In this document: piece after piece, positions 3,203 to 11,090 of the stretch
Layout of the letters: the number at the start of each line of letters is the position of its first letter
How positions within the stretch are numbered: the first letter of the stretch is position 1
Virus record (IMG/VR): IMGVR_UViG_2667527522_000001
Length of the DNA: 50,608 bases
From: a virus
Taxonomy: Duplodnaviria > Heunggongvirae > Uroviricota > Caudoviricetes
Reading direction: 5' to 3' (one strand)
The notes under the pieces: generated by a model
Databases searched by the model: none
The model's input: the letters and a program-made list of their open reading frames with translations, nothing else
What the model was told of the DNA's origin: nothing
Position numbers and translations under genes: made by a program

Positions 3203-5886
3203 AAACACCGTCTGTATCCACGATTTCCGGAGCTGCAATTGGGCGCTGGCCTTATATCCTGTCAGCATTAGGTATTAAAGTACCGTCCGCAGGACATCAT
3301 GGGGCTTGCCCTGCCTGTGGTGGAAAAGATCGTTTTCGACTGGACGATAAAGCGGGGCGAGGGACGTGGTTTTGTAATCAGTGCGGTCATGGCGATGGTC
3401 TTGATCTGGTTCGTCTGGTGACAGGAAGAAAGATAAAAGAAGTCGCCGGGATGGTATCTGAGGCGCTTGCATTACCAGAAATACAGGAGAAGCCCGCATT
3501 GCCAGCCAGGAAAAAGGCCGCAGGAAAAGAAGCGGGCGCGGAGCGATATACCAGACTCAGACAGCAGTCCTGCAATGGTGAGCCGGTCTATCTGACAAAT
3601 AAGAGCTTACACGGGTATTCACTTCCCTTGCTGTCACAGCCTTTGAATCTGGCCGGAATAACATTTTCCACCGGTTCATTACTGCTGCCTTTGACGGATA
3701 TTTCCGGGAATATTACTGGTGGCCAGCTTATCAATCCTGACGGGGATAAAAGTCTGCTGCCCGGTAGCCAGCTGTCTGGCGCATTCATTGCCCTGACCGA
3801 TATACCCGCTGAAACACCTGAACAGGTGATTATCACTGAGGGTTTTGCCACGGCGCTTACCGTCAGTCTGCTGACTGAAGGATGGATCGTGGCGGCTGTC
3901 GCTGCCACCAATTTACTGAAGGTGACGGAGCAGATCCGAAAACGCTGGCCGGAAACCCGGATCATTCTGGCCGGAGATAATGATCTGGCTGACGGCAAAG
4001 AAAACACCGGGCGTATTCAGGCAGAGAAAGCCGCCAAAGCGGTGGATGGCTGGGTAACGCTCCCTCCGGTACGCCATAAGGCTGACTGGGATGATTATCG
4101 GCAGGAAGTGGGGAAAGAACGGGCGAGAGATGCCTTTCGTGAAGAAATGACGCTGCATGGCAAAGGGCAGACCCGTTTACCAGAAGGGTTCCGGCTGACA
4201 AAAGAATATTTGTGGTACGACAAGCTGGTTAATAAGTCTGATGGTGATACAGAGATACGTAATATCAAAATTTGCAGTCCGTTGCGGGTGACGGCAATCA
4301 CCAGTGATGCTGATGGAAGTAATTACGGGCGTTTGCTGGAATGGGAAGATACCAACGGAAACAGCCGTAAATGGGCAATGCCGATGGAGATGCTGGGCGG
4401 TAGCGGGGAAGAACTGCGCCGCGTTCTGCTGGTTAACGGGCTTTCTTACATCAACATTAACGGCATGGCCAGAGCATTCCTGATGGAATATATCTCGCTG
4501 TGTAAACCGGACAGAAAAGTAACCTGTGTGAATAAAACTGGCTGGCACGGCGGGGTTTACGTTCTCCAGGATGAAGTGATAGGGCGCGAAGCCCAGTCAG
4601 TCATCTTACAAACATCGAGTGTGCAGGGGCGTGATTTTCGTGTCAGCGGCACATCAGAGGGCTGGCGTGAAAATATAGGCCGTTATTGCATAAAGAATGC
4701 CCGTCTTGCCTTTGCGGTGAGTCTGGCATTTGCTGCCCCCCTTCTGAAACTGGTTGGTATCGGCGGTGGAGGTTATCACCTCAAAGGGGAATCCACAGAC
4801 GGTAAAACCACGACGATGAAAGTGGCTGCATCAGTATGTGGTGGAACAGATTTCTGGCATACGTGGCGGGCGACGGGGAATGCCTTAGAAGGAACGGCGA
4901 GCCGCCGCAATGATGCCACGCTGATGCTGGATGAAATCCGGGAGGTTGACGGCAGGGAGGCGGGAAATATCGCTTATATGCTGGCTAACGGGCAGGGCAA
5001 AGCCAGAGCCAGAACAGATGGTTCGGTAAGGGAAACCAACCGCTGGAATCTGTTGTTTCTGTCTACCGGGGAACTGTCACTGGTAGAGCATGCGGCAAGC
5101 GCCGGGGAACGTACGTATGCCGGGGTTGAGGTCAGAATGATCCAGATCCCAAGCGATTCGGGCAAGTATGGCGTGTTTGAAGAACTTCATGGCTTCAGTA
5201 GCGGGAAAACCCTGGCTGAGCATCTTGAGCAGCACGTAGCGCATTATCATGGTGCACCATTCCGCGACTGGCTGTATTGCCTGACCGCTGATCTGCCGGA
5301 ACTGACCAGTCAGGCGAAAGCCTTATTGAAAGAGTATACCCGAAGGCTGACGCCGGAAAATGCCGGGAATCAGGTTGGCCGGGCTGTTACCCGTTTTGCT
5401 CTGGTTGCGATGGCCGGGGAGCTGGCCACAAAAGCGGGCATCACAGGATGGCCGGAGGGAGAGGCCTTTCGTGCCGCTCAAAGCTGTCTGGCTGCATGGA
5501 TGGCTGACCGGGGCCATACAGCTAATCAGGAAGATAAAGCGGCACTTGAACAGGTTCGGGACTTCATGACGCGTAATCAGTTCAGTCGGTTTGCTGACTG
5601 GAATGACGACAGGAACCGGCCTGTTTCAATGATGGGATTCAGAAAAGTCGATAAAGGAGACAACGTGACAGAGCCGGTTGTGACGTTCTACGTTCTCCCG
5701 TCAGGCTGGAAGGAGATCTGTAAGGGATTTGACTCGCGTAAGGTGGCCAGGTTGTGTGTGGACGCGGGCTGGCTGAAACCCGGTGAAGATGGCCGGACGC
5801 AAAACAGCATTCGCCTGCCAGAAATAGGGCTTAAACGTGTGTACCAGTTCAATACACAGGTACTGGGAAGCGCTGAACCTGAGTGA
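3199..5886 (+). CDS. P4 alpha-type primase/helicase
   Basis: 895 aa; N-terminal CPACGG...CNQCGHGDG zinc-binding motif; long central and C-terminal region; GTG start with AGGAGG SD. Confidence 0.88.
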   Translation: MKTPSVSTISGAAIGRWPYILSALGIKVPSAGHHGACPACGGKDRFRLDDKAGRGTWFCNQCGHGDGLDLVRLVTGRKIKEVAGMVSEALALPEIQEKPALPARKKAAGKEAGAERYTRLRQQSCNGEPVYLTNKSLHGYSLPLLSQPLNLAGITFSTGSLLLPLTDISGNITGGQLINPDGDKSLLPGSQLSGAFIALTDIPAETPEQVIITEGFATALTVSLLTEGWIVAAVAATNLLKVTEQIRKRWPETRIILAGDNDLADGKENTGRIQAEKAAKAVDGWVTLPPVRHKADWDDYRQEVGKERARDAFREEMTLHGKGQTRLPEGFRLTKEYLWYDKLVNKSDGDTEIRNIKICSPLRVTAITSDADGSNYGRLLEWEDTNGNSRKWAMPMEMLGGSGEELRRVLLVNGLSYININGMARAFLMEYISLCKPDRKVTCVNKTGWHGGVYVLQDEVIGREAQSVILQTSSVQGRDFRVSGTSEGWRENIGRYCIKNARLAFAVSLAFAAPLLKLVGIGGGGYHLKGESTDGKTTTMKVAASVCGGTDFWHTWRATGNALEGTASRRNDATLMLDEIREVDGREAGNIAYMLANGQGKARARTDGSVRETNRWNLLFLSTGELSLVEHAASAGERTYAGVEVRMIQIPSDSGKYGVFEELHGFSSGKTLAEHLEQHVAHYHGAPFRDWLYCLTADLPELTSQAKALLKEYTRRLTPENAGNQVGRAVTRFALVAMAGELATKAGITGWPEGEAFRAAQSCLAAWMADRGHTANQEDKAALEQVRDFMTRNQFSRFADWNDDRNRPVSMMGFRKVDKGDNVTEPVVTFYVLPSGWKEICKGFDSRKVARLCVDAGWLKPGEDGRTQNSIRLPEIGLKRVYQFNTQVLGSAEPE

Positions 5887-5912
5887 TTATCGCGTGAGTC
5901 TTATTTTTATGA

Positions 5913-6103
5913 GGTAACACTGGTAACAGAGGTAACACCCGTTACTGATGCGGTTCTTCAGTGTTACCAGTCAAAAATACTGACTGGTAACAGAGGTAAC
6001 AAAAAATGGTGTGTTACCACGCGTTACCTCTTGATTTTGCTAACTGGTAACAGATTAAATCCTTTTAAATCAATAGCGTTACACGTGTTACCAGTGTTAC
6101 ACG
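5913..6103. repeat. Iteron cluster, candidate replication origin or cis replication region
   Basis: At least 6 direct GGTAACA and 4 inverted TGTTACC copies in about 190 bp directly after the primase gene. Confidence 0.55.
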
Positions 6104-6168
6104 TTCAGAACAAGAGGTAGGGATCCAAATCCCTTCTTCTGGCGGGCAACAGTATAGGGCACAGAACG

Positions 6169-6441
6169 ATGAAGATGATGAGAATGTACTGCCCCACATG
6201 TCAGGCAGTAGCACGGATAGGTAAAACAAACAGGAAACACCCACAACTGTACGATGTGTACTGCTATTGCTCTAATGTGGAGTGCGGTCACTCGTTTGTG
6301 ATGAATGTTGCTTTCTCCCATTCCGTTAGTCCAAGCGCGCTGAACGGGCAGGGAAGGGTTAAAGAGCTGATTGATGCAATTCCACCCGAGGAACGGGAAA
6401 AGGCTTTAAAGTTGCTGCTGGCTGCGCAAAAGAATGGGTAA
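6169..6441 (+). CDS. Ogr/Delta-family zinc-finger late activator
   Basis: YCPTCQ...(22 aa)...CSNVEC cysteine spacing as in P2 Ogr. Confidence 0.65.
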   Translation: MKMMRMYCPTCQAVARIGKTNRKHPQLYDVYCYCSNVECGHSFVMNVAFSHSVSPSALNGQGRVKELIDAIPPEEREKALKLLLAAQKNG

Positions 6442-7120
6442 AGTATGCGTCGGGAATGGCCGATCTGTTCCCGGAACCTGAACACAGGATTTCAGTTTAT
6501 ACGGTCATAAAATTATTATTTTTCAACTGGTTATCTTCTTCATGTTTCACAAACCTTCATAAAATCACACACCTAAAATTAATTATCCATTTAATATCAT
6601 AGAGTTGCGTATTCAGGCCATAGATTCGACGGACAGTAAAACTGAAAAAAAATGAATTTCTTTTCATTCTTTTCAGTTCCTGTATCGCAGTACATCTCGA
6701 GGACTGGCACGGACTGGCGGTATCGTTTGTAAAAAATCCAGGCTGAAAATTTTTAGTGATATGAAAACCGCAGGCGGGTGCGGTGTAGTGCCGTTTTGGT
6801 CTGTCGAGCGTATATTTTCCTTTTTCACGATTGCTGCATATCAAAACGAATGTGCAGATATCAGGCCGTGTCAAACCGTGAATCGTGGAGCCTAAATGCC
6901 CAAACTACGTTTGTAGACCTAGCTAGGGGAAGGTTTCCACATATACTGCTACCTATCTTCCAGTCGCTGGTGAGGATCAAGGTAAGCTAACTGGTGAACA
7001 AGAAAAGTACTTTCGTATCTTGCGTACTCGTTTTTTTTGATTAGTATGTACAGGTAGTAACTGGATGGTGAGAATTCGTCATAACTTATCAAATTGCATG
7101 ATGTTTATAGAGTATGAGTA

Positions 7121-8002
7121 ATGAGTCATAATAAAAAGGAATATGCTAAATTTTTCCGTCGCCCCATTTTTTCATCCTTAGCAAAAGGTAAGGATATTTC
7201 GGATTTATTTGGGAGTTTTGATTCTTACTGCTATGAAACACTGTTTTCAAACAATGATAATAATGAACATGAGATTTCACTAAGGGATTTATTTACATCA
7301 TTATATGATTTTTTGCGTCTGAATTATAGAAATGAATATGTTTATAAGACAGCACTTGTCAATAAAATAATATTCGGTAAGCACAGCCCAAAAACAAGTT
7401 CGTCGTCCATAGAGTTACCAATTAAAAACTCTATAGTGGATGTTGCGGTGTTTAATGGTACGTCTACAGCTTACGAGATTAAGACAGAGTATGATTCACC
7501 AAAAAGGTTGATTACTCAAGCCCCTGATTATTTGGATGTTTTTGATAAAGTGTATATAGTTACACATCCAGAGTATGCAAGTAAATATTGTGCTTTAAAT
7601 CTCCCCAGAGTGGGAGTTATGGTTTTGAATAAAAAAGATCAATTGAGTGTCATTAAGGAGGCAGATTCAAATATTGATTATATTAAAAGTGACAGCTTGT
7701 TTTCAGTTCTTAGAAAGGAAGAGTTCTTAGCTATAATAGAAGATTACACTTCAACTAAAATAAATATGCCTAACGGATTGGTTTATGAATATTGTAAAGA
7801 GATATTCATGCAGATGCCATTAAACATAGCAAATAAATACTTTATCTCTGCTATGAAAAAAAGATGTAACGATAAAGTTTTTTTGGATTATATTTATTCT
7901 CTTCCAGCATGTTTACGTGTTTTAGGTTATGCAACACCATTATCAAGAAAGCAAAAAGAATTCATCATGAATTTGATGGATGTAAAAATTAAAATTTGTT
8001 GA
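7121..8002 (+). CDS. Hypothetical protein, gene A of an AT-rich accessory cassette; possible PD-(D/E)xK-like nuclease motif
   Basis: 293 aa; markedly AT-rich versus flanks; IVDVAVF...AYEIK resembles a D...ExK signature. Confidence 0.65.
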   Translation: MSHNKKEYAKFFRRPIFSSLAKGKDISDLFGSFDSYCYETLFSNNDNNEHEISLRDLFTSLYDFLRLNYRNEYVYKTALVNKIIFGKHSPKTSSSSIELPIKNSIVDVAVFNGTSTAYEIKTEYDSPKRLITQAPDYLDVFDKVYIVTHPEYASKYCALNLPRVGVMVLNKKDQLSVIKEADSNIDYIKSDSLFSVLRKEEFLAIIEDYTSTKINMPNGLVYEYCKEIFMQMPLNIANKYFISAMKKRCNDKVFLDYIYSLPACLRVLGYATPLSRKQKEFIMNLMDVKIKIC

Positions 8003-8466
8003 TATCCTCAGGAGTTGTAAGTTATGTATAGCCCATATTTGTATGCGAGAAGTACAGAGTTATTATGCCTTAGGGACCTCGTTGCGAAGGGAGTTAGCCT
8101 AAATGGTCTGCTACCAATTTTAGAACCAATTAACGTCAATACGAGAAATTTATTAACATGTTTAAATGTTTGGAATTCTGACATAATTGTTATCCTTAAT
8201 CCTTATCAGGAAGATTTTTCTTCACACAATAACGTCTTAACTTTAAATCAAAATTTATCAAGTGTATTAACAAATAAAAATAATATCATCTCTGGATATC
8301 TTATTCAGCCCAATACAACGATTAATGATATTAATAATTGGTTGAATGCTAACTTAAATAGACGAGTTGCACTTCTATATGATAATCCATCATTATCCAA
8401 CTCTGATATTCGGTAATGGTGCCAACTTACTGATTTAGTGTATGATGGTGTTTTTGAGGTGCTCCC

Positions 8467-8742
8467 GTGGCTTCCATCTCCATCAGTTGTCCCTCCTGCT
8501 CAGCTACTGAAGGCGTGGTGCGTAACGGTAAAAGTACTGCCGGACATCAGCGCTATCTCTGCTCTCACTGCCGTAAAACATGGCAACTGCAGTTCACTTA
8601 CACCGCTTCTCAACCCGGTACACACCAGAAAATCATTGATATGGCCATGAATGGTGTTGGATGCCGGGCAACCGCCCGCATTATGGGCGTTGGCCTCAAC
8701 ACGATTTTACGTCACTTAAAAAACTCAGGCCGCAGTCGGTAA
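8467..8742 (+). CDS. insA: IS1 InsA
   Basis: [42 protein letters not shown] matches IS1 InsA. Confidence 0.9.
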
Positions 8743-9164
8743 CCTCGCGCATACAGCCGGGCAGTGATGTGATTGTCTGCGCTGAAATGGACGAACAGTG
8801 GGGCTACGTCGGTGCTAAATCACGTCAGCGCTGGCTGTTTTACGCGTATGACAGGATACGGAGGACGGTTGTGGCGCACGTCTTCGGTGAACGCACTCTG
8901 GCCACACTGGAGCGTCTTCTGAGCCTGCTGTCGGCCTTTGAGGTCGTGGTATGGATGACGGATGGCTGGCCGCTGTATGAATCCCGCCTGAAGGGAAAGC
9001 TGCACGTAATCAGCAAGCGTTACACTCAGCGCATTGAGCGACATAACCTGAATCTGAGACAACATCTGGCAAGGCTGGGACGGAAGTCACTGTCGTTCTC
9101 AAAATCGGTGGAGCTGCATGACAAAGTCATCGGGCATTATCTGAACATAAAACACTATCAGTAA
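8661..9164 (+). CDS. insB: IS1 InsB frame (transposase InsAB' by -1 frameshift)
   Basis: IS1 InsB sequence; slippery AAAAAAC at about 8718. Confidence 0.85.
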
Positions 9165-9729
9165 GTTGGAGTCATTACCTGATATTCAGTTGTTGGCGAC
9201 AAATCAATTGATTAGTTATCATGTTGTTTTAAATAATAAAATGCTTCCTAATCAGTGCGCTCTTCTTCCTTTGTCGAAGTTAATTATTATTAGCGATAAC
9301 TTTAGAAAGTTAGCAAAAAATGCTGATTATAATGGGCCGGAACTTTTCACGCACGCACATCAATTCGTGGGACAAAATTACTTAGGATTTGGCGATTATA
9401 CAATTACTGGCCAGGTACTAGATCTTGGAGGTGGTCAACCTTCTGCTGTTGCCGCACATTTGGTGTTCAAGAATTTACAAGCGAATACAGTTTGGATTCG
9501 TCATTTTGTATCAAGCAACACGCAACGAGGAAGTTCAAATGTTACTGCAAAATTTTTAGATGTTTCAGATCAAATTACAAATCTTGTTCCCCAACATCCA
9601 ACCCAGTTTGGCAGCAACATTGGTCTTAACTATTATTATTACAATAGTCAACCAACTGTAAGGCATTTCCCTGGGTTGCCAAAAAACAAACAGTATCAAA
9701 TTACTCACCATATTTGTTTCATGCTGGAT

Positions 9730-10953
9730 TTAATAGCAGGTCGTATTTAATAAGCTAGCGTACCATTCCATCATTACTTGTCGATCTTTAATATATTGCG
9801 CATGATTGTAAGTACCTCGAATAGAGTTCTTATCAACATGCGCAAGCTGCATTTCAATCCAGGCACTTTCAAACCCATGCTCATGCAAGATGGTGCTCAT
9901 GGTATGCCTGAAACCGTGACCCGTTAACCGACCGTGATAACCCAGTAGTTTTATCACTTTGTTGATGCTGGCTTCGCTCATTGGTTTACTGACGTCATTC
10001 CGGCCAGGGAAAACGAGGCTGTAATTCCCTGTTATTTCTTGCAGCTTTTTCAGGATATTGATCGCCTGAGTTGATAACGGAACCAGATGGGGGCGGCGTT
10101 TCTTCATCCGTTCTTTGGGGATCTCCCATAAGGCATTATCTAAATCAAACTCAGCCCATTCCGCTGCACGTAGTTCAATTGTTCGCACGCCTGTTAGCAT
10201 CAACAGCTGCGTGGCGTATTTGGTAACTAAACTGCCCTGATAGTTATCCAGAGCATTAACGAACTCGGGCAACTCGCTTTCAGTCAGGAACGGGAAGTGT
10301 TGGGTTTTAGGTTTGTTGAGTGCGATAGCTAAATCGGGTGCAAAATTATACTTTGCTCTACCAGTGGCAACAGCATAACGAAGCACTTCACCACAGCGGC
10401 GGCGGATCTTACTGGTTTGCTCTAGCGCACCTCTTTTCTCTATTTTTTGCAGGACGGTTAGCAGTTCTAATGGTTCAATCTGCTCAATTGGGCGCTGGCC
10501 GATAAAAGGAAAAATATCCTTTTCCATACAATTGAGAACCTCTTTTGCATAACCCTCTGACCAGGTGGCTTTTTTCGATGAGTGCCATTCTCTGGCCACA
10601 GACTCAAAGCTGTTCTCATGCGCGAACTGCAAAGCAATCTTATCTGCTTTTCTGGCTTCACTTGGGTTTATCCCGTTGGCTAACATCGAACGCGCTTCAT
10701 CACGTTTGGTACGTGCCTGTGCCAACGACACATCGCCATATACGCCAAAGGAAATCATCTTAGGCTTACCTGCAAAGCGATAGCGAAAACGCCAGCCTTT
10801 ACTGCCCGCTGTGTCGATCAGGAGTGATAGCCCCATACCATCGTTAAGCGTATAGGGTTTGTCCTTCGGTTTTGCTCTTTTTATTTGGATGTCAGATAGC
10901 AGCATGTGTATAGAAAAAAGATCGAACTCAGTTATACACAATGTTATACGCAA
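9730..10953 (-). CDS. int: Tyrosine integrase, P4 type
   Basis: 407 aa; N-terminal KRAKPKDKPYTLNDGMGLSLLI arm-binding type; C-terminal GHGFRHT...LAHVD...RGTYNHAQY catalytic region. Confidence 0.9.
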   Translation of the reverse strand: MRITLCITEFDLFSIHMLLSDIQIKRAKPKDKPYTLNDGMGLSLLIDTAGSKGWRFRYRFAGKPKMISFGVYGDVSLAQARTKRDEARSMLANGINPSEARKADKIALQFAHENSFESVAREWHSSKKATWSEGYAKEVLNCMEKDIFPFIGQRPIEQIEPLELLTVLQKIEKRGALEQTSKIRRRCGEVLRYAVATGRAKYNFAPDLAIALNKPKTQHFPFLTESELPEFVNALDNYQGSLVTKYATQLLMLTGVRTIELRAAEWAEFDLDNALWEIPKERMKKRRPHLVPLSTQAINILKKLQEITGNYSLVFPGRNDVSKPMSEASINKVIKLLGYHGRLTGHGFRHTMSTILHEHGFESAWIEMQLAHVDKNSIRGTYNHAQYIKDRQVMMEWYASLLNTTCY

Positions 10954-11075
10954 AGATGTATAGATTCCATTAGAAATAATGGTACTTTGCTGGACGAGTA
11001 TAAGGAGATGATATCAGTTAAAACAGTGAGTTATGGAATTAATTGAACTTAGTGAGAAGTGTTCATGGTGTCCCC

Positions 11076-11090
11076 TGCAGACATCTACTT
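11076..11090 (-). other. 15-nt match to the 3' terminus of tRNA-Arg (argW-like); att core candidate
   Basis: Minus strand reads CTGCAGGGGACACCA, preceded by non-tRNA sequence. Confidence 0.5.

Follow-up and report, generated by a model that had tools for sequence, protein, structure and literature searches.

Two described anti-phage systems depend on proteins of the P4 beta family. Gop-beta-cII of satellite P4 (Rousset et al. 2022; 'gop_beta_cll' in DefenseFinder and PADLOC) protects against lambda and P1 (PMC9122126) and is triggered to kill by a phage gene of the ral region (bioRxiv 2023.04.06.535777); its Gop component is a protein with two transmembrane segments (2-TM) (PMC9122126). In PD-lambda-2 (Vassallo et al. 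2022), defence requires PD-lambda-2C, a protein of the beta family, whereas the toxin is neutralised without it (PMC9519451), an argument for beta-like proteins acting as sensors or accessory factors. P4 beta itself matches the PADLOC model PD-Lambda-2_C (E 8e-14). In the window analysed here (IMG/VR virus record IMGVR_UViG_2667527522_000001, 50,608 nt in its entirety), two genes located at positions 7121-9750, referred to as gene A and gene B, form the cargo of the variable slot of an 11-kb P4-related satellite inserted at argW in E. coli ST131. We consider it reasonably probable that this cassette represents a two-gene, gop-less sister lineage of Gop-beta-cII, in which the gene B product would act as a sensor or regulator and the gene A product as a nuclease effector.

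Gene A (7121-8002, + strand) is intact and encodes a protein of 293 amino acids (aa). A first-pass annotation, made from the sequence without database searches, had described the cassette as a candidate uncharacterised defence system; the protein belongs to the named family sce7726/Phage_P4_cII. It scored 175.6 bits against NCBIfam NF033832 (sce7726_fam; cutoff 70, E 9.6e-52) and matched the PADLOC 'cll' model of Gop-beta-cII (PDLC02989, E 1.2e-18). BLASTP comparison with P4 cII, itself annotated as sce7726, revealed 39% identity over 61 aa of the catalytic core (E 9e-11). All gene A homologues listed carry Pfam PF26915 (Phage_P4_cII); no Pfam-A match was obtained for gene A in a copy of the database that lacked this entry. 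Residues E98, D107, E119 and K121 (the last two forming an E119-x-K121 motif) are invariant in 37 gene A homologues, so that a conserved E...D...(D/E)xK motif is placed on the core strands of a restriction-endonuclease-like fold. The AlphaFold2 (AF2) model (pLDDT 92.6) resembles restriction-endonuclease-fold proteins, and gene A has in common with MmcB-like and related nucleases (PDB 3dnx, NucS, PaqCI, Can2) the core alpha-beta fold and the E...D...ExK signature. A published HHpred assignment of P4 cII as MmcB-like (Table S3 of PMC9122126) agrees with this fold. As judged from sequence and model, gene A is homologous to P4 cII and encodes a predicted PD-(D/E)xK nuclease, and the invariant motif and the AF2 model bear out the earlier suggestion of such a fold.

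Gene B is interrupted in the window by the insertion sequence IS1. Joining its 5′ part (8024-8411, + strand, codons 1-129) to its 3′ part (9188-9750, + strand, codons 130-316 plus stop) yields an uninterrupted open reading frame (ORF) of 951 nt; an intact ORF was thus recovered on removal of IS1, as predicted, its length being 316 aa plus stop instead of about 317 aa. The repaired gene is the same as the intact gene of strain SK1144 at both the protein and the nucleotide level. Its product matches the representative sequence of a 90% cluster that comprises 524 E. coli proteins (listed with 100% identity and 100% coverage). Although gene B had been considered not assignable to any family by eye, its product matched NCBIfam NF033831 (sce7725) with 242.2 bits, far over the cutoff of 60, along profile positions 1-311 of 312. 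It gave no significant Pfam match and no PADLOC match; a sub-threshold Pfam match to NAD_synthase (E 0.11) was dismissed as noise. Sequence searches of the PDB with both family profiles (sce7726 and sce7725) found no relatives.

The AF2 model of the gene B protein (pLDDT 94.9) shows alternating strands and helices forming a triosephosphate isomerase (TIM) (beta/alpha)8 barrel, in keeping with the earlier remark that it has no P-loop. Residues E12, E34, N59, D199, H220, H235, S238, K297 and H304 are invariant, and D176 and H303 nearly so. Active sites of TIM barrels sit at the C-terminal ends of the strands. Since the invariant residues E34, N59, D199 and H235/S238 occupy such positions, the modelled protein probably contains a conserved pocket, either catalytic or ligand-binding. 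The only significant match in a BFVD fold search was an uncharacterised Gordonia phage protein, which was uninformative.

BLASTP comparison of gene B with P4 beta gave no significant match, and the relation between them is visible only with profiles. Alignment of 44 sce7725 proteins with 35 proteins of the P4 beta family (PF14350) by hhalign covered 250 columns (probability 89.7%, E 1.9e-6). The two profiles have in common an N-terminal Y-P-x-L-x-x-R-x-x-E-x-x-x-L motif and a G-D motif. These similarities suggest that gene B and P4 beta are remotely homologous.

At 50% identity, the sce7725 family comprises 1,490 representatives (E up to 1e-3), each a single-domain protein of about 300-325 aa. 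In the E. coli element, and in eight of the eight further loci sampled (L005, L006, L013/14, L015, L033, L034 and L035), which range from Proteobacteria to Acidobacteria, the sce7725 gene has a cII-family gene as its neighbour. The two genes are co-oriented and separated by 4-48 nt in Hafnia, Pseudomonas, Paraburkholderia, a viral contig and two metagenome contigs; in an acidobacterium they are convergent and overlapping, as are beta and cII in P4. Two of the pairs lie in defence islands: that of Paraburkholderia is accompanied by a type I restriction-modification (RM) system, Hachiman, a Schlafen-AlbA protein and a Cap4-type nuclease, and that on a metagenome contig by an SLFN-type helicase and a BglII RM system. 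Toxin-antitoxin (TA) modules (HipA, HigB, RES) adjoin some homologous pairs, and Bro-N is likewise among the neighbours.

Canonical beta genes are preceded by a gop-sized gene (143-161 aa) and followed by a convergent cII gene, and no small gop-sized gene was found in the corresponding position in the sce7725 loci examined. Against the sce7726 profile, cII proteins paired with beta score about 1e-11 to 1e-15, and those paired with sce7725 proteins 1e-57 to 1e-133. There are accordingly two lineages of one two-protein core, in each of which both partners have diverged together.

Several of the related loci deserve separate mention. In P. aeruginosa (L008-L010, 5563-8859) a canonical gop-beta-cII trio is located beside a Pf-type filamentous prophage (Zot, coat B) and directly adjoins genes for a HigB-like toxin and a helix-turn-helix (HTH) protein, an arrangement that recalls the HigB/Xre/beta make-up of PD-lambda-2. 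Two divergent metagenomic loci carry a further gene directly after the cII/sce7725 pair: a RES-domain gene 4 nt 3′ of the pair (L035, 6940-7911) and a gene for a 320-aa protein without family (L034, 7078-8040). These third genes hint at optional extra effectors analogous to gop. Hafnia alvei (L013/L014, 8819-11502) contains the same cassette, with about 71% nucleotide identity, near mlaA; a short stretch of satellite backbone lies upstream and a truncated integrase gene overlaps gene B, so that the locus resembles a degraded copy of this satellite whose cargo alone has survived intact. A search for related loci with close alignment returned almost solely the same E. coli element, from IMG/VR.

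Within the window, the two co-oriented genes occupy the place previously described, between the gene for an Ogr/Delta-like zinc-finger protein (6169-6441, + strand; Pfam PF04606, E 5e-14), which is the last conserved backbone gene before the cargo, and that of the satellite tyrosine integrase (9730-10905, - strand, RefSeq start; the ORF reaches 10953). The 3′ end of gene B overlaps that of the convergent integrase gene by 21 bp (9730-9750), again as reported. The marked AT-richness of the cassette was also confirmed: the GC content is 0.31 for gene A and 0.34 for gene B, against 0.48 for the satellite backbone, 0.46 for the integrase gene and 0.52 for IS1. An RBS (ribosome-binding site), AGGAG, is present 8 nt 5′ of the gene B ATG. 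The cargo begins with an AT-rich leader 5′ of gene A (6803-7120, + strand) that is absent from the satellites carrying Kiwa or PARIS described below. This leader presumably holds the cassette's own promoter; a promoter scan upstream of gene A found no convincing candidate. No conserved third ORF is present in 6803-9750. A 70-aa ORF with a GTG start (6778-6990) was considered as a gop-like third gene, but it spans the junction of backbone and cargo, is not conserved in Hafnia and is probably spurious.

The IS1 copy (8412-9179, + strand, 768 bp) has GGTAATG... terminal inverted repeats and intact insA (8467-8742) and insB' (8661-9164) frames. It is flanked by the direct repeat CTGATATTC (8403-8411 and 9179-9187), within which the unambiguous target duplication is 8 bp long, TGATATTC, the right copy extending from 9179/9180 to 9187. 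In the ORF map of the window, gene B appears as two ORFs (8024-8416 and 9166-9750). Since the gene is split after codon 129, the system is non-functional in this copy, as the first-pass annotation had concluded. The repaired cargo shows no difference in 2172 nt from the IS-free cassette of SK1144, and the IS1/gene B junction of the window was found, among 5426 complete E. coli genomes, in a single strain, MNCRE44, from which the window derives (100% match).

The cassette is present in 422 of these 5426 genomes, always chromosomal, in single copy and at least 99% identical; the ST131 strains EC958 and SE15 carry the same satellite backbone. Four independent IS1 insertions have occurred in or beside the ~2-kb cassette among the 422 genomes. 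Gene B is disrupted in MNCRE44 and THO-015, at different positions and in opposite orientations, with gene A intact in both. In FXCREC145, IS1 lies in the 3′ end of gene A, which is truncated, and gene B is intact. The insertion in AVS0155 is situated between gene B and the integrase gene, which is truncated. Selection against the cassette was rejected as the cause of these insertions, because IS1 prefers AT-rich targets and only three of the 422 copies are disrupted; the insertions may reflect no more than this preference. Since strains with either gene knocked out singly are viable, neither protein alone seems to be constitutively lethal at native expression.

Mass spectrometry of E. coli isolates has detected a protein of the sce7725 family (PMC8203672). 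In the same study a 'sce7725 family protein' was more than 4-fold more abundant in aminoglycoside-resistant isolates, which was left unexplained there (PMC8203672). The cassette is found as near-identical single copies in part of the genomes, ST131 strains among them, which suggests that it marks a lineage and has no role in resistance.

The viable single knock-outs argue against any dependency of the classical TA or modification/restriction kind. Under a restriction-like scheme, gene B would modify the host DNA or nucleotide pool, as TIM barrels of the tRNA-guanine transglycosylase (TGT)/DpdA type do, and gene A would cut unmodified incoming DNA. Loss of gene B in the presence of intact gene A should then kill the cell, yet MNCRE44 and THO-015 exist; moreover, the resemblance of gene B to TGT enzymes is no better than its resemblance to dozens of unrelated TIM barrels. 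We therefore regard this scheme as unlikely.

It is equally improbable that the pair is primarily an addiction module, maintained as a toxin and its antitoxin to stabilise the satellite in the chromosome and not to block phages. In its favour, P4 gop and beta have been interpreted as a TA pair (PMC9122126), beta has been termed 'a P4 phage antitoxin' (PMC9519451), and HipA, HigB and RES modules adjoin some of the homologous pairs. However, disruption of each gene alone in viable strains is not expected of a classical toxin with a labile antitoxin, the beta-family protein PD-lambda-2C is not needed for toxin neutralisation, and pairs are also found in chromosomal defence islands outside mobile elements.

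Comparison of the same slot in related satellites showed that its content is exchangeable. A backbone probe (5300-7100) matched 442 genomes with near-full coverage, and about 28 of the best matches were 90-99% identical. In two sister satellites, with backbones 94-96% identical to that of the window (96-97% in the stretch up to the junction), homology to the window ends at 6802 (strain CT01) and 6799 (strain FDAARGOS_1261). A terminator-like GC hairpin with T-runs on both strands (6767-6794, terminator scan) lies directly before the junction at 6802/6803. The cargo of CT01 consists of kwaA and kwaB (Kiwa), and that of FDAARGOS_1261 of genes for an AAA-ATPase and a DUF4435 protein (AriA/AriB, PARIS); both identifications were confirmed by PADLOC models. 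These cargos are likewise AT-rich (GC 0.29 for Kiwa and 0.33 for PARIS), and the PARIS cargo overlaps the 3′ end of the integrase gene by 22 bp, much as gene B does. The annotation of the Ogr/Delta gene is identical in SK1144, CT01 and FDAARGOS_1261. The slot between ogr/delta and int is a real hotspot, and the earlier proposal that it holds variable anti-phage cargo proved correct. As the satellite has no psu, it is not the canonical psu-int hotspot of P4-like elements.

The exchange of cargo also bears on a possible role of the two genes in the life cycle of the satellite itself, be it in lysogeny, in the control of excision or in the exploitation of a helper; the historical name cII would suggest such a role. 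Because sister satellites of the same backbone carry Kiwa or PARIS in its place, the cassette is dispensable for the satellite, and in Pseudomonas, Paraburkholderia and Acidobacteria homologous pairs are found outside satellites. A role of this kind is thus unlikely.

The idea that the cassette is decaying, horizontally acquired AT-rich DNA, functionless in its intact copies too, might draw on its low GC content, its use as an IS1 target (four independent insertions among 422 genomes) and the near-identity of its E. coli copies, but it is largely refuted by family-wide conservation (both proteins 25-65% identical across phyla with dozens of invariant residues, and a full-length single-domain architecture in ~1,500 cluster representatives), to which the highly confident AF2 models and the detection of the protein by proteomics may be added, and we give it hardly any weight.

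The complete form of the satellite is seen in SK1144, where the IS-free element of 11,024 bp (locus L002, 6382-17405) lies between dsdC and argW and is bounded on both sides by the 15-mer TGGTGTCCCCTGCAG. The genes of the satellite are arranged in the order: HTH regulator, 286-aa protein, P2-family major capsid protein, Icd-like/Ash region (with C4 antisense RNA and isrK), two small genes, DUF927 primase, Ogr/Delta, gene A, gene B and integrase. In the window the capsid gene is located at 884-1888 (PF05125, E 1e-66), and the 286-aa protein encoded before it gave no Pfam or PHROG match. C4 antisense RNA (2221-2308; Rfam, 81 bits) and isrK (2063-2140; Rfam, 69 bits) both fall inside the Ash/Icd-like gene region, which suggests an RNA immunity system of the P4 type; DNA similarity to P4 is confined to this immunity region (P4 8285-8707, 71%). 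Neither psu nor sid is annotated in the complete satellite of SK1144. The element had no matching record in the phage collection, and a search with the cos region of P4 gave no match in the window, next to the slot or elsewhere. It is a P4-related satellite of an atypical kind, with a P2-family capsid gene of its own and without psu and sid, and would therefore have escaped the survey of Rousset et al. (PMC9122126), which was anchored on psu.

At its right end the satellite is delimited by the 15-bp att core TGGTGTCCCCTGCAG (11066-11080, - strand), which corresponds to the 3′ end of the tRNA-Arg gene argW; homology to a strain with an empty site stops at 11080, inside this 3′ end. A P22-type prophage resembling CUS-3, phiv205-1 and Sf6 follows from 11081 (region 11066-50608). 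Since the prophage begins directly after the satellite at argW, the two elements are arranged in tandem at one att site. ARAGORN detected no intact tRNA within the window, so that the complete argW must lie past its right end.

The reading of the cassette as a gop-less relative of Gop-beta-cII implies that the intact pair would protect its host from other phages, and with the host the satellite. By analogy with the described systems, the gene B protein would sense infection or process a signal and license the gene A protein, which as effector would cleave DNA and stop the phage. The phage would probably be stopped either through abortive infection or through direct breakdown of its replicating DNA, and the cassette may plausibly work like Gop-beta-cII in this respect.

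Several observations weigh against this interpretation. Gene B gave no match at E up to 1 with the Beta_protein (PF14350), PADLOC beta or PD-Lambda-2_C HMMs (hidden Markov models), and its apparent relation to beta is drawn from one profile-profile match of less than 90% probability and a common partner. PADLOC v2 has no model for gene B and no system definition for the pair. The cassette is without gop, and toxicity has been reported for no component of Gop-beta-cII but this one. The putative sensor and effector roles are assigned by analogy. P4 cII was first named for a plaque phenotype related to lysogeny. Finally, the 422 copies, those of ST131 among them, are at least 99% identical, and their retention is weak evidence of selection.

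A wider proposal can be put forward tentatively. A beta-like TIM barrel and a cII-type nuclease might together constitute an autonomous and widespread immune core, to which the membrane toxin gop has been added in Gop-beta-cII and of which PD-lambda-2 reuses the beta-like part alone, combined with a different module (HigB/Xre-peptidase). In that case the TIM barrel would represent a new class of protein, a catalytic sensor of phages or an enzyme for signal processing, by which the nuclease is licensed. The ~1,500 sce7725 clusters at 50% identity, spread over several phyla, and the RES-domain gene abutting one pair would fit this proposal, which as a whole we hold to be possible and not probable.

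If the pair is a stand-alone defence, the poorly understood Gop-beta-cII would have a minimal two-protein core, and the beta-like TIM barrel and the nuclease cII would come into focus in place of the 'toxin-antitoxin' reading of gop and beta. Such a pair would also offer a tractable entry to the biochemistry of the beta family, whose members are needed in two validated systems and have neither a known activity nor a solved structure. Satellite defence hotspots would extend to a psu-less, capsid-encoding P4-related satellite of a kind that psu-anchored surveys would miss. The intact cassette is present in hundreds of complete E. coli genomes, including those of ST131 (EC958, SE15), and so may bear on host range in phage therapy.

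With respect to known systems, the cassette is first of all a full member of the sce7725/sce7726 pair (NCBIfam NF033831/NF033832): both proteins lie far over the cutoffs, their genes are adjacent, and at the family level there is no difference between the two. These are named families with no assigned function. Literature searches on the two families returned genome-annotation mentions only, and the pair is treated as a system by no paper in the searched literature and by no PADLOC v2 model. The designation of the cassette as an uncharacterised defence system therefore needs qualification: it holds for the pair, which has no experimental record in the searched literature or in PADLOC v2, but not for its components, which belong to named families related to cII and, remotely, to beta. 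Of the two genes of the repaired cassette, gene A was recognised by a PADLOC v2 model ('cll') and gene B by none.

PD-lambda-2 resembles the cassette in containing a beta-family protein, but its effector module consists of HigB-like and Xre-peptidase proteins and includes no cII nuclease. The present cassette contains no HigB or Xre-peptidase gene, and gene B does not match PD-Lambda-2_C.

The psu-int defence hotspot of P4-like satellites (Rousset et al. 2022) and the slot described here are both int-proximal and variable, and both swap AT-rich defence cargos such as Kiwa and PARIS. The present satellite also has the alpha-type primase, Ogr/Delta and the C4 antisense RNA immunity region in common with those elements. 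It differs in that its slot is bounded by ogr/delta instead of psu, and in that its backbone lacks psu and sid and includes a P2-family major capsid gene.

The differences from Gop-beta-cII concern mainly composition and arrangement. In two defining features the cassette departs from that system: it has no gop (a small, toxic 2-TM protein), and gene B falls outside the beta HMMs (PF14350, PADLOC beta). Nor does it contain any other third gene, and the gene A protein is longer than P4 cII by ~64 residues at its N-terminus. Genes A and B are co-oriented in this order, whereas gop and beta of P4 are convergent with cII, and the cassette resides in a psu-less satellite, between ogr/delta and int. 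On the other hand, both are hotspot cargo of satellites, placed next to the integrase gene. Gene A falls into the same NCBIfam and Pfam family as cII, with an MmcB-like PD-(D/E)xK core, and so corresponds to the cII component of the P4 system. Gene B, a putative remote homologue of beta, is of TIM-barrel size and has the N-terminal and G-D motifs in common with it, and one homologous pair even shows the convergent arrangement of beta and cII.

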